From: an uncultured delta proteobacterium
Lineage (GTDB): Bacteria; Desulfobacterota; Desulfobacteria; Desulfobacterales; JAHEIW01
Length of the DNA: 64,000 bases
Direction of reading: 5' to 3'
Assembly: GCA_963706575.1 (NCBI GenBank)
Contig: CAVPNL010000005.1
Coordinates: 160,001 to 224,000, forward strand
Position 1 is the stretch's first letter. Every line of letters begins with the position of its first letter. Positions 15,001-21,000 of the stretch are shown here, one piece after another. Position numbers: made by a program.

Positions 15001-18000
15001 AGAGACAGGGTGCTCAGCGAAACGATGATCAAAACGCCGCTGCACGTCAACATCAATGACTCCCTGCGGGATTTGAAGGATTTTTTCAGGCAGTATACGT
15101 TTTTGGGAGCGCCGGTAACCGACGATGAAGGCAAACTGGTCGGTGTTATCCGGAGTTCATCTGTGAGAGAGGCGGCCAACCGGCAGAACAACCAGCTGTT
15201 TTTAAAATTTGCCGGTATCGTCGGCGGCGAAGAGTCCAGGAACATGTCGCTGTTCAAGCGATCATCCCGTCGCCTGTCCTGGCTCAGCATCAACATTGTT
15301 CTTAACATTATTGCCGCCAGTGTGATTGCTTTATACCAGGACACCCTGGAAAAGGCGATTGTGCTCGCTGTTTTTCTGCCCATTATATCTGATATGAGCG
15401 GTTGTTCGGGCAATCAGGCCGTTGCCGTAAGTATCCGTGAATTGACGTTGGGGCTTGTGCGACCCCGGGAATTGGCCCGGGTGCTGGCCAAGGAATCTGC
15501 CATCGGTATGATCAACGGGATCGTGCTGGGAATTTTACTTGGAGGCGCGGCCGTCCTCTGGAAAGGAAATCCCTGGCTTGGATTGGTAGTCGGCGTTTCT
15601 TTGGCGGCCAACACGCTGGTGGCGGTGAGTTTCGGCGGACTGGTTCCGTTGATTCTGAGGGGTATGCGCACCGATCCGGCCCTGGCATCTGGGCCGCTTC
15701 TTACAACCGTGACGGACATGTGCGGGTTTTTCTTTGTGTTAAGCTTTGCGTCGATACTGCTTCCCAGGTTGGCAGGATAGGAAGGCTGATGAAAAATATT
15801 AGCAAAAACAGTAAAATAAAAAACTCGAATGATTCAAATTTACGTGCTGATCATGCAGATTGGTCTAACCATTTGGATACAAAAGCATATTTCAGGAAGC
15901 TCAAATTGCGTTTAGGCATCGGCCTCCTGATTTCTTTTGTTGTGCCGTTGATCGCCTTATCTGCGTATTTTCATTTTCAGTTTAACTTTACTTTGAAAGA
16001 GAATGCCAAACTTAATCTGATTGCCGTTTCCGAGAGCCAGAGAAATACCGTCGATCTGTTTCTACAGGAAAGAGTCGTCAATATTTTCAGTCAATTCCAA
16101 AGTGGAGAATTCAGCCTGACACCTTCTCGGCACACCATGGAAAACTATCTGAGAAATCTAAGACGGGTCAGCGATGCATTTATTGACGTGGGTTTTCTAG
16201 ATGAAAAAGGTATCCAGATCGGCTATGCCGGTCCATTTCCCCATCTGCAGGATAAAATTTACGCCGATGAACGCTGGTTTGTAACCCTGATGCAACAGGA
16301 CCGGAACCACTTTATCAGCGACATCTATCTTGGTTTCAGAAATAAGCCCCATTTCACCATTGCCGTAAAGCAGATAATCGACGGCAATCTGTATGTGATG
16401 CGCTCAACCCTTGATCCGGATAAATTTTACATGTTTTTACGGACGATCAATCACGGCAAAGGTGCAGATTCCGCGCTGATAAATGATGAAGGCATCTACC
16501 AGATCGCGGATCCCGGTCGCGGGAAACTATTCGGATTAAGCGATTTCCAGCCTTCGAATAAAACGGGGTCCGGGGTTCAGGAAATTAAAAAAAACGGCAC
16601 TGCGATCCTGGTTGCCTATGCCTGGCTACAGGAGACGCCGTGGGCTTTGATCGTAAGAGAGCCCTTAAACATATCCCACGGGCAGATGTACCGGGCCAGA
16701 CAAATCATTATTGCCAGCACTATGCTAATTATCGTTATTGTTGCCATAGTGATCTGGTTTGCGACCAACAAGCTAATAAAAAAAGCCCAAAATAACGCCG
16801 AAAACCGGGAAGAGCTCCAGCTGCAGCTCCTGCATGCCTCCAAGCTGGCCTCGGTGGGCGAATTGGCCACCGGTGTGGCCCATGAGATCAACAACCCCCT
16901 GGCCATCGTCATTGCCACCACCGGTGTAATCCGGGATATGCTGAACCCGGAGTTTGACCTGGACGCCAGCCCAGAAAATATCCTCAAGGAGCTGGATACG
17001 GTTGATACGGCCGTTTATCGGGCGCGGGTCATTACCCGGCAACTGCTGGATTACGGGCGCAAGAATCCTCCCCGCCCGGTGGCCTGCAATCTGAATCAAC
17101 TGTTGGACGAGGTGATGAGCGGCTTCAAGCAGCGTGCATTTGAAGTCGAAAACATCAAGATAAAAAAACAGTATGACCCTGAATTGCCTTTTGTCCTTGC
17201 GGATCCCGATCAAATCCGCCAGGTATTTTTAAACCTGATCAACAATGCAGGTGATGCGATCAGCGCAGCGGGCACAATCACGATTACCACCACCGGCGAA
17301 GGTGATCACGTGCGGGTGACGATTATCGACAGCGGCCGGGGGATGACTGCCGAGCAGATGAAAAAAATATTCGATCCTTTTTATACCACCAAACCGGCGG
17401 GCAAGGGCACCGGCCTGGGCCTGAGCGTTTCCTTGAGTATTGTGAAGTCCATGGGCGGGTCCATCGATGTTCAGAGCATGCCGGGAGCCGGGAGTTCATT
17501 TACAGTTTCATTGCCAATCGACACAACAGAAAGGGGCAACGATGCAGCGGCAACCAGTGACAGCGGACAAAAATAATTTAAAGCCAACGATCCTAATTAT
17601 TGATGACGAGGACCGCTTCCGGCAGGCGCTGGCCCGGCAGCTTGAAGTCAGAGACTTCAACGTCCTGGACACCAGCAACGGCGAAGATGCCATCAAAATC
17701 GTGCGTCACGACAATCCCGAGGTGGTCATCCTGGACCAGAAGATGCCGGGTATGGACGGTATCCAGACCTTAAAGGAGATCAAAAAGATCCGACCCGAAG
17801 TACAGGTGATCATGCATACCGGCCACGGCAACCTTGAAGCGGCCCGGTTAACCGGCAAGCATGATGTTTTTTGCTATCTTGAAAAACCCAGCACCCTGGA
17901 AGATTTGATAAAGGTGGTCAGGGATGCTCTGGAAGAGCGAGTCAATGCCCTTGCCCGTCACGAGATACCGGAAATTCAAAAAAGCGGACTCAAAGATTGG

Positions 18001-21000
18001 CTGATCGGCGTGCATAATGCCCGGCCGGGGATCATTCTGCTGGGCCTCATACTTTTTGCGGGCATGGTACTGATGCCGATGCCTCGACAGCTTGAAACCT
18101 TTCTGGTATCCAAAAAAACCGGAGAAATGGGGGAGGCCGTTGCCGGCTATTCCGATTACCGTCAGATGGAGGTCGGCCAGAGCATTGCCGAGTATTATAC
18201 CCGCAAGGCAAAATTGTACACCAAAACAATTGCCCCGGACGGCAAAGTGGTCAAGACTCCCCTTAGCACGGAGCAGGTCGCGCGGCGCGCCAAAGTCATG
18301 GTGGGAATTTTGCTGGTGGCGGCGATTTTCTGGGCCACCGGCGCCGTGCCCATCGGCATTACGGCCCTGCTGGTCGGCGTGCTGATGTATTTCTTCGGCG
18401 TGTTTCCCGCCGATCAGGTGGCACAGGCTTACGCCAAGGATTCGGTCGTTTTCATTTTCGGTGTTTTGGCCCTTGCCGCGGCCATCAGCAAAACCGGGCT
18501 GGATCGCCGCATCGGCATTTTGCTGTTGGGCACCAGCACCTCCCTAGCACGCTTTGCCTTCATTTTCGGACCCCTTTTAGCCGTTACAGCCGCTTTTCTG
18601 TCCGAACATGCCCTGGTGGCCTTCATCGCGCCCATTTTGATGCTTGTCTACCTGGGGGCGATCCGAACTGCCGGCTTAAAAAAGGACAAGAGTCTGGTGG
18701 TCATGCTGCTACTGATGCTGACATTCTGCGGCAATGTCGGCGGGCCCGGATCCCCTGCGGCCGGCGGGCGCAACGCCGTGATGCTGGGTATTTTCTCGGA
18801 TTACGGGGTCAGCCTGTCTTTCGGGCAGTGGGTTAAAATGGGAATGCCGTTTGTACCGGTTATGGCAGTGGTAATCGCGGCCTATTTTTTGCTGGTTTTT
18901 CGGAAAAAGGTGAAGATCAAACCCATCAATATTGCCGCCGAGGTCCGGCGCGAATCCGAAAAAATCGGAAAGATGACAGCCGATGAGTACAAAGCCGCAG
19001 GGGTTCTCATACTCGTTATCGTCTTGTGGACAACTCTTTCCAGCCGGTTTGGCATGGGCGGGCCGGTCATATTGTGCCTGGTGCTGTTGAATATTCTTGG
19101 GGTCCTTCGCTGGCGGGATATCAACAACATTCACTGGGATGTTGTGGCCTTGTACGCGGCGGCCAGCGCCATGGGATATGGGCTGGCCGCTACCGGAGCG
19201 GCCCTGTGGCTGGCCAGCAGCTTTATGTCTGTGCTGCCTGAAATTCTAAAGAGCGGAATCGGTCTGTGCATCTCCACCAGCTTTATCACCGGTGCTTTAA
19301 CCAATTTCATGAGCGACGGCGCCACGGTGGCGGCGGTGGGCCCGATAACCGTTCCTATGGCGACTCTGTCGGGGACCTCGCCGATTATGGTGGGGCTGGC
19401 GACCGCGTTTGCCTCTTCATTTGCCCATATGCTGATCATCGGCACACCCAACAACGCCATTGTTTTCAGCATGGCCAAAGACCCCGATACCGGGGAGCAG
19501 CTGCTGACGATGAAAGACTTTTTCATCCACGGCTTTGCGATTTTTGTTCTCAGCCTGGTGGTATTGTGGCTGTGGGCATTCTTCGGCTACTGGAAATGGA
19601 TAACCTTTTAATCAAGATCAAAGAAAGCATAATCATTTATTCCGTATAAAAGTATACAGAAAGGAGTTACGATTATGGCCGAACCTAAAATTAACCTTCT
19701 AATTGTAGATGACGAAGAGCAATTTTTGGAATCCATCAGCAAAAGCTTGCAGGTACGGGATTTTAACGTTGTTGCCGTCAACCGGGGTGAGAAAGCCATT
19801 GAAGCTGCCAGAAACAACCCCTTCGACATTGCCCTTGTGGATTTGAAAATGCCCGGAATAAACGGCGAAGAGACGCTCAAGGCCCTCAAAGCAGAGCATC
19901 GGTGGATGGAAGTGATTATACTTACGGGCCATGGAACCATTGACTCGGCCGTTGAGTGTACCAAAAGCGGTGCTTATTCATATCTGCAGAAACCCTGCAG
20001 TTTGGACGAGCTTTTGGAGTCCCTAATAAACGCCTACAAAAACAAAGTCATGAACAAGAAAAAAATCGAGGAAAAGAAAATGACCGAATTGCTGAAAATT
20101 TCCCTGGCCGGCTCTCCAAGAGATATTTTGCGCAGATTGAGAGAGATTGATAAAGGCTAATGGGAATTTCATCATTTACAATACTGATTAAAGGCGTGAT
20201 CGGCTGGAAAGCGGTGGTGGATATTGTCCTGATCGCTACGGGATTGTTCTTTTTATATCACACCCTGCTTCGGTTAGGGACCTGGCGAATCCTGGCCGGC
20301 ATCATGCTTGCTGCGTTTCTGTTTTTCATCGCCAATGTCATGGACCTCAGAGGCCTGGAGTGGATTTTCGGCAACTTCAGCCATGTGGCCGTCATCGCTC
20401 TGGTTGTGATTTTTCAACCGGAGCTCAGAAAAATATTCGAACGGGCCGCATCGGTCAGGCGATTTGAAATCCGTGATGCCGGGGCTGAACTGTCCCGTAT
20501 GATCATGGATTCCATGATCAAACTGGCCGCGCAACGCCGCGGTGCGATTGTGGTCTTTCCCGGCAAGGAACCTGTTCAGGAATGGCTCTCGGGTGGTTTC
20601 AAACTGGATGCCAGGCCCAGCATCCCGCTTATCATGAGCATTTTCGATCCAAACTCACCGGGACACGATGGCGCTCTGATCATTCAAAAGGGAAAATTTA
20701 CACGTTTTGGGGTGCGCTTACCCATCTCACAGAGCTCAAAGCTTCCGGATGAATTCGGCACCCGCCATCATGCGGCCATGGGTTTGTCCGAAAAGTCGGA
20801 TGCGCTTGCGATTGTCGTTTCCGAAGAACGGGGAAAAATTTCGATATTTAGCAATGGTAAGTTTCGGCAGCTTGATGACCCTGAAAAACTTGAGAGGGCC
20901 ATCACTTCACACTGGAAACACACATCATCGTATCCCTTCGAGCTTCCCGAAGGAAAGAAACGATGGTTGGTGCTTTCACAAATTTTTATCAGCCTATGTC

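Follow-up and report, generated by a model that had tools for sequence, protein, structure and literature searches.

Organisation of the locus

The window, i.e. the whole stretch of 64,000 nucleotides that was analysed, derives from a sediment bacterium of the sulfate-reducer type and contains at positions 15789-20160 a triad of genes that on reading of the open frames encodes a sensor histidine kinase, a fusion of a receiver domain with an anion carrier of the DASS family, and a lone receiver. The triad and its surroundings comprise the following genes:

12731..13396, plus strand: PhoU_div (DUF47) protein, upstream context on the same strand (Pfam PF01865, E 5.5e-21)
13396..14340, plus strand: PiT/PHO4-family permease, context (Pfam PF01384, E 1e-55)
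14407..15780, plus strand: MgtE magnesium channel (TIGR00400, 274.9 bits, cut-off 232.75; Pfam MgtE, MgtE_N and CBS)
15789..17576, plus strand: dCache sensor histidine kinase (Pfam and translation; frame open from 15720)
17542..19611, plus strand: receiver-DASS fusion protein P0006, 689 aa (ORF, Pfam, AlphaFold2 model)
19675..20160, plus strand: lone receiver, 161 aa (Pfam Response_reg, E 1.1e-27)
20160..21602, plus strand: CdaA-type diadenylate cyclase with YbbR domain (Pfam DAC, CdaA_N and YbbR)

The kinase gene begins 8 nt behind the end of the MgtE gene, lies directly upstream of the fusion gene and overlaps it with its 3' end by 35 nt. The fusion gene starts at an ATG behind GAAAGGGG, in a frame that is open from 17467. 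From Pfam and the translation the kinase consists, in this order, of a transmembrane helix, a periplasmic dCache_1 domain (42.1 bits, slightly below the 45-bit cut-off), a second transmembrane helix, HisKA with the H-box HEINNPL, and HATPase_c. The lone receiver is 37% identical to the fused one and ends in a charged helix without an output domain.

The translated PiT permease carries the motif GANDASNA in its N-domain and GANNVANV, with Asn in place of Asp, in its C-domain; the meaning of these motifs is given in section 15 of PMC5840216. Start codon of the CdaA gene and stop codon of the lone-receiver gene overlap by one base. Its product scores 161.3 bits against TIGR00159, below the cut-off of 188.8 bits. 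A CdaA gene was found in 3 of 61 related loci, each time at 83-89% identity, such that it is specific to the window locus and its closest orthologues. CBS domains near the triad occur, according to Pfam, solely within the MgtE and CNNM proteins.

Architecture of the fusion protein

The AlphaFold2 model of the fusion protein has a mean pLDDT of 88.8 and a pTM of 0.76. Within the protein we distinguish four parts:

17587..17964, plus strand: receiver domain, residues 16-141 (Pfam Response_reg; VIA structural alignment)
18025..18072, plus strand: TM1, residues 162-177, with which the DASS fold begins (from DSSP and model pLDDT)
18085..18261, plus strand: TM1-TM2 insert of about 60 residues, 182-240 (model)
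18268..19608, plus strand: DASS core, residues 243-689 (phmmer alignment to VcINDY 4f35; conservation; Foldseek and VIA)

Both halves are readily recognised at the level of sequence. Response_reg is matched with an E-value of 1e-25 (90.5 bits, cut-off 30.2), Na_sulph_symp with 1.4e-37 (130.2 bits, cut-off 27) and CitMHS with 5.8e-30, while the score of 167.8 bits for the NCBIfam model TIGR00785 'dass' stays below its cut-off of 198.6 bits.

The modelled receiver superimposes in VIA on the phosphorylated receiver of NtrC1 (1zy2) with Z 22.7 and an rmsd of 1.5 over 125 residues, and its nearest solved relatives are receivers of the NtrC1, NtrX and DctD type. Residues 119-141 form a long alpha-5 helix. 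From the CheY pattern and the fit to solved receivers we take D21, D22, D65, T93, Y112 and K115 to be the phosphorylation pocket. Among 127 fused homologues these residues are kept in 125, 125, 126, 126, 124 and 127 proteins, respectively. The phospho-acceptor aspartate, which the survey's finding had left open, is thus canonical and conserved; its codon, for D65, lies at 17734-17736.

The same held for the topology. In the model the DASS fold is complete, from TM1 to TM11 and with both re-entrant hairpins, and the receiver lies ahead of its TM1. Residues 153-686 align with residues 18-462 of VcINDY (5uld) at Z 35.7 and an rmsd of 2.5 over 434 residues. Since this alignment begins at residue 153 of the model and residue 18 of the VcINDY chain, the receiver precedes TM1. 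The fit to NaCT (8uvb) is closer still (Z 41.7, rmsd 2.1, 431 residues), and Foldseek TM-scores against DASS structures amount to 0.80-0.82 on the target. Residues 142-149, ahead of TM1, form a linker of low confidence in the model. From the structure of VcINDY the N-terminus of DASS carriers is reportedly cytoplasmic, and the modelled receiver would likewise lie on the cytoplasmic side. By homology the carrier would be a homodimer that works by an elevator mechanism. The TM1-TM2 insert would, by analogy with the DASS topology, be periplasmic; it is common to the closest unfused relatives, whose matches begin at query residue 160-161.

In VcINDY, SNT motifs at the hairpin tips bind carboxylate and Na+. 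In the fusion protein SNT is absent from both tips and the aligned positions read S354-E355-H356 and S591-D592-G593, which makes the carrier a member of a divergent subfamily with DASS fold rather than a canonical SNT carrier. Further motifs are G408-G409-R410-N411 in TM5b and T635-P636-N637-N638 in TM10b. Of the 127 fused proteins, 121-127 retain the motifs of the hairpin tips, TM5b and TM10b, and 126 retain R410.

A second copy and conservation of the module

A second fusion gene is present on the same contig (C5:352167-354233, minus strand). Its product of 688 aa is 81% identical over residues 9-688 and is flanked by its own dCache kinase and lone receiver. The paralogous triad as a whole has about 80% identity to the one in the window (69% for the kinases, 85% for the lone receivers). 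No CdaA-type gene was found at this second locus. The architecture of kinase, receiver-DASS fusion and lone receiver that the survey reported for two loci is real. Comparison of the paralogues gives pN/pS values of 0.105/0.71 (receiver) and 0.087/0.62 (carrier), indicating strong constraint on both domains. All 120 listed database homologues, at 74-100% identity, contain the same three Pfam families. Together with the pN/pS values this sets the fusion beyond chance.

Within the order the fusion was found in 15 of 150 further genomes, and species-representative genomes contain 52 full-length fused loci. The distribution is thus patchy and not restricted to the lineage, other than the initial description as rare outside it had suggested. 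The fused orthologue of 67% identity in a 724-aa frame was found again (G045). The gene order is that of a conserved module: of the 53 related loci that have at least 1500 nt of sequence upstream, 51 have a kinase there, and of the 53 that have at least 600 nt downstream, 49 have a lone receiver within 1 kb on that side. In 18 of 47 related loci a second dCache kinase follows downstream. Both congeneric genomes searched (97% complete) are devoid of the module, which is therefore dispensable. Expression was seen as a few short contigs in one metatranscriptome library that may contain DNA.

The closest unfused DASS relatives (44-50% identity) adjoin dCache kinases (L015-L018) or single-domain receivers (L015, L019, L020). 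On the DASS tree the receiver label requires at least three changes, so that the receiver-DASS fusion is recurrent; in one protein (P0138) a Usp domain stands at this N-terminal position instead. In the receiver tree, 12 of 13 lone receivers located near anion carriers fall on the side of the fused receivers compared to 4 of 47 receivers from elsewhere, with an SH-aLRT support of only 87 for this split. Judged from this tree, fused receivers appear to be kin to the lone receivers near anion carriers.

Regulators at related loci

We found no gene for a DNA-binding regulator in the window, at the second locus, in five fused loci or in two further transporter clusters of the genome, which fits a non-transcriptional output. 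The regulators annotated in these loci are bare receivers or receivers joined to CBS or kinase-like domains. Likewise, no target of the lone receiver and no protease or adaptor gene was found nearby in the annotated loci. The two further clusters, on contig C4, hold SulP, ClC and DASS carriers with kinases of the same family, whose dCache members are 27-30% identical to the window kinase over the full length. Both combine a DASS carrier with a cache kinase, with response regulators and with CBS proteins that stand alone; DASS carrier, dCache kinase and receivers are present in the window.

Discussion

The reading that we prefer, and to which we give about an even chance, is that phosphotransfer directly modulates the carrier, i.e. 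that a secondary anion carrier takes the role of the response regulator. An external small molecule would bind to the dCache domain on the periplasmic side of the kinase, whereupon the kinase would autophosphorylate and D65 of the receiver in the cytoplasm would accept the phosphoryl group. Some 20 residues would link the receiver to TM1, which as a scaffold helix belongs to the dimeric elevator-type carrier. A change of its alpha4-beta5-alpha5 face could reposition the two receivers under the carrier dimer and thereby alter the transport rate or affinity without new protein synthesis. The same kinase would also feed the conserved lone receiver, which would serve either as a sink or as another branch. 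Phosphotransfer, a contact of the receiver with the carrier, the sign of control, the kinase ligand and the substrate are parts of this scheme that we infer.

Against this reading stands that the lone receiver is conserved nearly as well as the fusion, so that it could be the real output. Occupancy of or flux through the carrier would then tune the phosphate on the fused receiver and hence the supply to the lone one, comparable to DctA and DcuB, which report to DcuS as co-sensors. That the lone receiver is retained in 49 of 53 loci, that one kinase faces two receivers with no effector domain except the carrier, and that a second dCache kinase, present in 18 of 47 loci, points to a more extended signalling network all speak for such a transceptor. 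We nevertheless consider it unlikely, given that the hairpin-tip, TM5b and TM10b motifs are kept as in a working carrier, that the kinase has a periplasmic sensor domain of its own and that the annotated surroundings hold no gene for a target of the lone receiver. The fused receiver might also only drain or localise phosphoryl groups, with the carrier working independently. Branched systems with sink receivers do exist, such as CheY1/CheY2 of Sinorhizobium, and the linker is predicted to be flexible. A carrier serving as mere anchor would, however, hardly explain why fusions within the DASS family recur and why Usp takes the same position, and the unfused relatives retain receivers as neighbours, so that we regard this explanation as improbable. 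Lower still we rate the idea that phosphorylation acts on how much carrier there is or how it assembles (through dimerisation, turnover or placement) and not on its catalytic cycle. Receivers often switch their oligomeric state, and dimers of the NtrC1, NtrX and DctD type, to which the nearest solved relatives belong, rearrange upon phosphorylation; yet scaffold domains hold the DASS dimer in every solved case listed, and neither a protease nor an adaptor gene lies nearby.

The same architecture could also serve a di- or tricarboxylate, as a fast version of DcuS/CitA-type control. This would agree with the source annotation 'sodium-dependent dicarboxylate transporter 2/3/5', with VcINDY as best solved sequence match, and with dCache_1 domains, for which organic or amino acids are frequent ligands. 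Against it stand the replacement of both SNT motifs by SEH and SDG, the arginine in TM5b, the neighbouring ion carriers (PiT, MgtE, CNNM) in place of carboxylate catabolic genes, and the SulP, ClC and DASS carriers in the clusters with the same kinase family. A carboxylate is thus a rather unlikely substrate. The SEH/SDG replacement in both hairpins together with the conserved arginine favours an oxyanion, and sulfate or a related oxyanion is most likely on these sequence grounds. Where sulfate or a dicarboxylate had been proposed before, the first is the favoured candidate and the second has become less likely because both SNT motifs are replaced.

A named orthologue exists in Desulfobacula toluolica Tol2 (CCK80087.1 / WP_014957420.1, UniRef100_K0NN26). 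It has the same architecture with 691 aa, is 76% identical over the full length and is entered as 'Response regulator modulated sodium/sulfate symporter'. At the level of annotation the design is therefore not barely known, as had been stated: the depositors' name expresses the same idea, as annotation only, and we found no discussion of this protein in the literature searched. Its length coincides with the maximum stated for DASS group Cii in PMC5840216. To this group belong HRM2_38230 and HRM2_38300, whose expression is high when sulfate is low; for Cii members the paper has expression and proteome data only. From the accession order and the DASS list of that paper, which includes both tags, the orthologue would be TOL2_19260 or TOL2_19300. 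In line with the survey's word search, 'regulator' occurs 0 times in that paper (Marietou 2018).

That cache kinases are linked with DASS carriers is known from a paper of 2025 (PMC11887813, Sci Adv). There, DASS clusters of Desulfobacteraceae with two-component systems and CBS proteins are taken to control sulfate uptake via transcription. Their regulators are described there as WalR type, and this transcriptional model, the only published one for such clusters, weighs against the preferred reading. They contain cache-type kinases beside DASS and SulP carriers, as do the two C4 clusters of our genome. The words fused, fusion and receiver are absent from the main text and one supplement. In contrast to the clusters as described there, the receiver here is part of the carrier, and a DNA-binding regulator was not found in the loci examined. 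More tentatively, and with some doubt, we extend the preferred reading to a general rule by which single-domain receivers around DASS, SulP and ClC carriers of marine sulfate reducers act on the carriers, so that external sulfate, sensed by dCache kinases, would set uptake within seconds and not via transcription. If true, receiver-DASS fusions would be the covalent form of a so far unrecognised rule.

Among carriers, VcINDY and the SLC13 proteins NaCT, NaDC3 and NaS1 share the full TM1-TM11 fold at 22-24% identity. They differ from the fusion protein by SNT instead of SEH/SDG, SPPN (VcINDY) instead of GGRN and the lack of the roughly 60-residue TM1-TM2 insert, and their structures contain no receiver. 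In the yeast phosphate carrier Pho90 a cytosolic regulatory domain is likewise located ahead of TM1 of a DASS-fold anion carrier. VIA aligns our carrier with Pho90 from Pho90 residue 378 onwards (Z 35.9, rmsd 2.7, 454 residues, 16% identity), so that the fused receiver occupies the place of the N-terminal part of Pho90, which we take to be an SPX domain. SPX domains sense inositol pyrophosphates; the Pho90 part has no sequence relation to the receiver, which here is fed by a kinase. SLC5-STAC histidine kinases (CbrA, CrbS; PMC9100948) also join a carrier covalently to two-component signalling. There the carrier, of another family, sits on the kinase and hence on the input side; here it sits on the receiver, on the output side.

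Response regulators can act without binding DNA, as CheY does on FliM, CpdR and RssB as adaptors, and CheB. In these as well as in PorX and PleD the receiver, once phosphorylated, has a protein machine or an enzymatic domain of the same protein as its direct target. To our knowledge, a membrane carrier is the output of none of the six. Should the general rule outlined above hold, this would be the first class of response regulators with a secondary transporter as output. PorX and PleD also turn up among the structural matches to the model.

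Gene organisation at the window locus and in its second copy

The fusion of a receiver domain with a DASS anion carrier is real, conserved and under strong constraint, and it lies within a conserved module of a dCache histidine kinase, the fusion and a lone receiver. At the window locus the module belongs to a run of plus-strand genes between 12731 and 21602 that are tightly packed one after another.

Genes of the plus-strand run (coordinates along the window)
12731-13396, +, PhoU_div gene (Pfam)
13396-14340, +, PiT permease gene (Pfam)
14407-15780, +, MgtE gene
15789-17576, +, dCache_1-HisKA-HATPase_c histidine kinase gene
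17542-19611, +, receiver-DASS fusion gene, 689 aa
19675-20160, +, lone receiver gene, 161 aa
20160-21602, +, CdaA-type diadenylate cyclase fused to a YbbR domain

The start codon of the fusion gene is an ATG downstream of GAAAGGGG, and the first 35 nt of the gene lie within the 3' end of the kinase gene. A single base belongs both to the stop of the lone receiver and to the start of the cyclase. Two CNNM/CorC genes on the opposite strand are convergent with the run. Open reading frames and Pfam matches bear out the survey's finding of a kinase, a receiver-DASS fusion and a lone receiver at this place, in position as well as in content. The second triad it had reported is likewise present, at G000:C5:351608-355977 (-) of the same genome (G000), with 81% identity to the window triad for the fusion (residues 9-688), 69% for the kinase and 85% for the lone receiver. 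A scan of 12000-23500 gave 12 promoter-like sites (12.5 expected) and 21 terminator-like sites (14.2 ± 3.8 expected) and did not provide usable operon boundaries.

The second locus converges on a gene for an AIR-synthase-like protein, which we take for a putative selenophosphate synthetase on its sequence, and a TusA-DsrE fusion (G000:C5:349865-351496, L031:5866-7497, +). These neighbours hint at sulfur or selenium handling.

Conservation of the fused receiver

All 120 homologues among the matches listed from a large protein collection (74-100% identity, 629-704 aa) have Response_reg, Na_sulph_symp and CitMHS. The residues of the receiver pocket hardly vary across 127 aligned fused proteins (numbering of the window protein, P0006): D21 and D22 are each kept in 125, T93 in 126, K115 in all 127 and Y112, the aromatic switch residue, in 124. 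The phospho-acceptor Asp, which the survey had left unchecked, is in place as D65 in 126 of the 127. The idea of a pseudo-receiver was rejected on account of these conserved pocket residues. Comparison of the genome's two paralogues gave a pN/pS of 0.105/0.71 in the receiver and of 0.087/0.62 in the carrier; the ratios of about 0.05 and about 0.07 are only rough because synonymous sites are near saturation. Judged by its sequence, the fusion is a maintained protein rather than a gene-calling artefact. It very probably combines a regulator capable of being phosphorylated with a functional anion carrier.

Structure and topology

An AlphaFold2 model of P0006, computed with 54 aligned sequences as input, had a mean pLDDT of 88.8 and a pTM of 0.76.

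Parts of the modelled protein
Residues 16-141, receiver with a long alpha-5 helix
Residues 142-149, linker, low confidence
Residues 162-177, TM1
Residues 182-240, folded insert
Residues 243-687, DASS core

The model matched NaCT (8uvb; Z 41.7, rmsd 2.1, 431 residues aligned), VcINDY (model residues 153-686 on 5uld chain residues 18-462; Z 35.7, rmsd 2.5, 434 aligned) and yeast Pho90 (Z 35.9, rmsd 2.7, 454 aligned, beginning at chain residue 378), and NaS1 was also among the matches. These matches identify the model's first transmembrane helix as TM1 of the DASS fold. As to topology, a further point left open by the survey, the receiver precedes TM1 in the model, the VcINDY alignment beginning at residue 153. 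Since the N-terminus of VcINDY is cytoplasmic, as its structure paper reportedly states, the receiver should lie on the cytoplasmic side within reach of the kinase, and the 60-residue insert would be placed on the periplasmic side. In Pho90 the position of the receiver is occupied by an N-terminal regulatory part, an SPX domain. By structure and sequence matching, the solved receivers nearest to the fused one are of the NtrC1, NtrX and DctD kind.

Carrier motifs and candidate substrate

Motifs of VcINDY and their counterparts in the window protein (alignment to VcINDY)
First hairpin Ser-Asn-Thr: S354-E355-H356
SPPN: G408-G409-R410-N411
Second hairpin Ser-Asn-Thr: S591-D592-G593
TPPN: T635-P636-N637-N638

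The SEH, GGRN, SDG and TPNN residues are conserved in 121-127 of the 127 fused proteins, and the Arg of GGRN is retained in nearly all of 54 wider relatives. The window protein scores under the cut-off of the NCBIfam 'dass' model, and from its sequence we class the carrier as a divergent DASS. We read the conserved motifs as a probable working binding site with a specificity unlike that of carboxylate carriers; a carboxylate substrate is the rival to be weighed against this reading.

Our best guess for the putative substrate is sulfate or a related oxyanion, for three reasons. The Desulfobacula toluolica orthologue is 691 aa long, which equals the upper length given for DASS group Cii in PMC5840216. 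Kinases of the window kinase's family adjoin SulP, DASS and ClC carriers at other places in the genome. The upstream PiT has Asn for Asp in its C-terminal GANDVANA-type motif (GANDASNA in the N-domain, GANNVANV in the C-domain by translation), a change that PMC5840216 gives as a feature of some CysP-like groups, putative sulfate permeases. According to that paper, group Cii includes HRM2_38230 and HRM2_38300, which show high expression at low sulfate, and TOL2_19410, which was detected in the membrane proteome. It also notes that dissimilatory sulfate reduction begins with sulfate uptake, and that no protein responsible for this uptake has been experimentally identified in these organisms.

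The PhoU_div and PiT pair adjoins the window module (12731-14340, +) and also one DASS cluster on contig C4, where the copy lies at G000:C4 ~380100-381800 (L029:16107-17808, -).

The module in related loci and in carrier clusters

Of 61 loci surveyed in species-representative genomes (58-89% identity), 52 have the fusion in full length. In 51 of the 53 loci with enough flank the gene immediately upstream of the fusion encodes a homologous kinase, and in 49 of 53 a lone receiver follows within 1 kb. Some loci also have a second dCache kinase, which follows in 18 of 47, or another DASS gene of 26-36% identity (about 20 loci). As in G000, two loci with a near-full-length fusion occur in at least three genomes. 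The closest unfused DASS relatives (44-50% identity) have TM1 and the insert, and their neighbours include dCache kinases (L015-L018) and single-domain receivers (L015, L019, L020).

CdaA and MgtE were considered as module parts and rejected: CdaA is downstream in only 3 of the 61 loci, all closest orthologues, MgtE is upstream in one, again a closest orthologue, and both are absent from the second locus. The CdaA-YbbR protein itself (20160-21602, 480 aa) holds CdaA_N, DAC and YbbR in one chain and adjoins the two-component module in the closest orthologues only (L032, L033, L052). Firmicutes have two separate proteins, CdaA and the YbbR protein CdaR.

Two clusters at G000:C4:364000-382000 (L029) and 421000-440000 (L030) contain DASS, SulP-STAS, ClC and CBS proteins, dCache kinases and eight receivers. 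One has the order CBS, DASS, receiver-CBS, ClC, receiver, receiver, dCache kinase, receiver. The other starts with two receivers, an ORF without Pfam match, a dCache kinase, a kinase-like-receiver protein and SulP-STAS, followed by another ORF without Pfam match, two CBS proteins, DASS, a hexapeptide-repeat protein and a receiver. All eight receivers are bare or joined to a CBS or cytidylate-kinase-like domain, and no regulator of the annotated loci (window, second locus, related loci, both C4 clusters) has a DNA-binding domain. The clusters resemble those of PMC11887813 (2025), a paper in which DASS genes are reported to cluster with genes for two-component systems and CBS proteins; it assigns the regulators to the WalR type and proposes a transcriptional model. 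Neither a fusion nor a receiver is mentioned in its main text or one text supplement, the supplementary figures lying outside this check.

Within one C4 cluster, among the DASS, receiver and kinase genes, a ClC-type chloride channel with CBS domain is split across two overlapping ORFs of 279 and 337 aa (G000:C4:373078-374840, L029:9079-10841). The split could stem from a frameshift or from a sequencing error, or the gene could be broken.

History of the fusion

A DASS-core tree of 54 rows, built by a quick method, unites 23 fused proteins in a single clade (SH-aLRT 99). Two extra fusions each pair with an unfused protein, P0135 with P0141 and P0184 with P0263 (100 in both cases), so that the receiver label needs at least three changes; 'unfused' metagenome proteins may be truncated calls, though the named ones include TM1. 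In P0138 (692 aa, 46% identity) a Usp domain replaces the receiver ahead of the DASS core, with SEH, GGRN, SDG and TPNN kept.

A weakly resolved receiver tree (73 receivers, 122 columns) places all fused receivers and the downstream lone receivers on one side (SH-aLRT 87). The same side takes 12 of the 13 G000 receivers within 6 kb of a DASS or SulP gene versus 4 of the 47 others, as well as two of four receivers adjoining unfused DASS genes. With modest support, this is consistent with fusions having been drawn from a pool of carrier-linked receivers. Three receivers of another cluster, which has at least six receiver-encoding frames (G000:C14:133000-140200), group with the carrier-linked receivers in this tree.

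Proposed mechanism and alternatives

The parsimonious reading is that phosphorylation of the fused receiver would directly control its own carrier, with the lone receiver acting as a sink or side branch. DASS carriers such as VcINDY and SLC13 are dimers in which the transport domain moves against a scaffold. With TM1 as part of the scaffold, two receivers would hang from the two TM1 helices of the dimer and may pair or part beneath it, so hindering or freeing the elevator movement. Receivers of the NtrC1/DctD type form unphosphorylated dimers that keep the output off. Since these are the nearest solved receivers, relief of inhibition upon phosphorylation is one option for the sign of control. 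As input, PMC11887813 proposes sulfate, from conserved residues, as the ligand of this dCache kinase family.

The fusion could instead serve as a co-sensor, the fused receiver could be a pure sink, or phosphorylation could control assembly or turnover of the carrier. A complex prediction for receiver (1-148) and carrier (150-689), run without controls, scored 0.00 and speaks neither for nor against binding of the two. Direct control makes a distinct prediction: with its own receiver on the carrier, a D65 point mutation or BeF3- should switch transport. If the receiver is only a sink, the finding is reduced to an unusual domain fusion. If direct control holds, two-component systems would gain 'secondary transporter' as a further output, the bare receivers that are so numerous in transporter clusters would be re-read as post-translational regulators, and a kinase with its receiver-carrier protein would be a transcription-free switch of anion import for engineering.

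Earlier record and distribution

Receiver-carrier fusions have been annotated before and are patchy in distribution. The survey had called them barely known, which fails at the level of annotation: the D. toluolica orthologue is already named 'Response regulator modulated sodium/sulfate symporter', and the idea has therefore been on record since that genome's annotation. Literature searches that did not extend to subscription papers, such as Galperin's response-regulator classification, found no paper on receiver-carrier fusions. TOL2_19260 and TOL2_19300 belong to the DASS set of PMC5840216, in which the word 'regulator' is absent.

Occurrence of the fusion
Phylum sample, 400 other genomes: full-length fusion in 5, plus 1 contig-end fragment
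The window's order: 15 of 150 other genomes, at least 13 families
Family f55: 3 of 13
Two congeners, 97% complete: 0 of 2

The occurrence of the fusion is patchy, not confined to one lineage, and the survey's 'rare outside this lineage' needs tempering. A P0006-based query did not find the receiver-linker part in the two congeners (G425, G496), whereas two copies are present in G000, and the module seems to have been gained recently, or lost, within the genus. Fusion-bearing records are named Desulfobacterales, Desulfosarcina, Desulfatitalea, Desulfobacula, Desulfotignum and others. At 70-80% identity to the window copy, fusion genes also occur in bins labelled Acidobacteriota, Methylomirabilota, Thermoanaerobaculales, Planctomycetota and Nealsonbacteria (L039, L040, L043, L046, L057, L075, L078, L080, L081), which suggests mis-binning or recent transfer between phyla.

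One DNA-run contig joining 17785 to 19905 was rejected as a deletion, its 30-letter side of 90% likeness pointing to another organism's receiver gene. One metatranscriptome library, which may contain DNA and whose uncovered parts prove nothing, gave short contigs on the fusion gene, two of them without differences (18039-18118, 18297-18447). At least half of the stretch's sampled words were found in five runs of four studies, from estuary and marine-sediment metagenomes.
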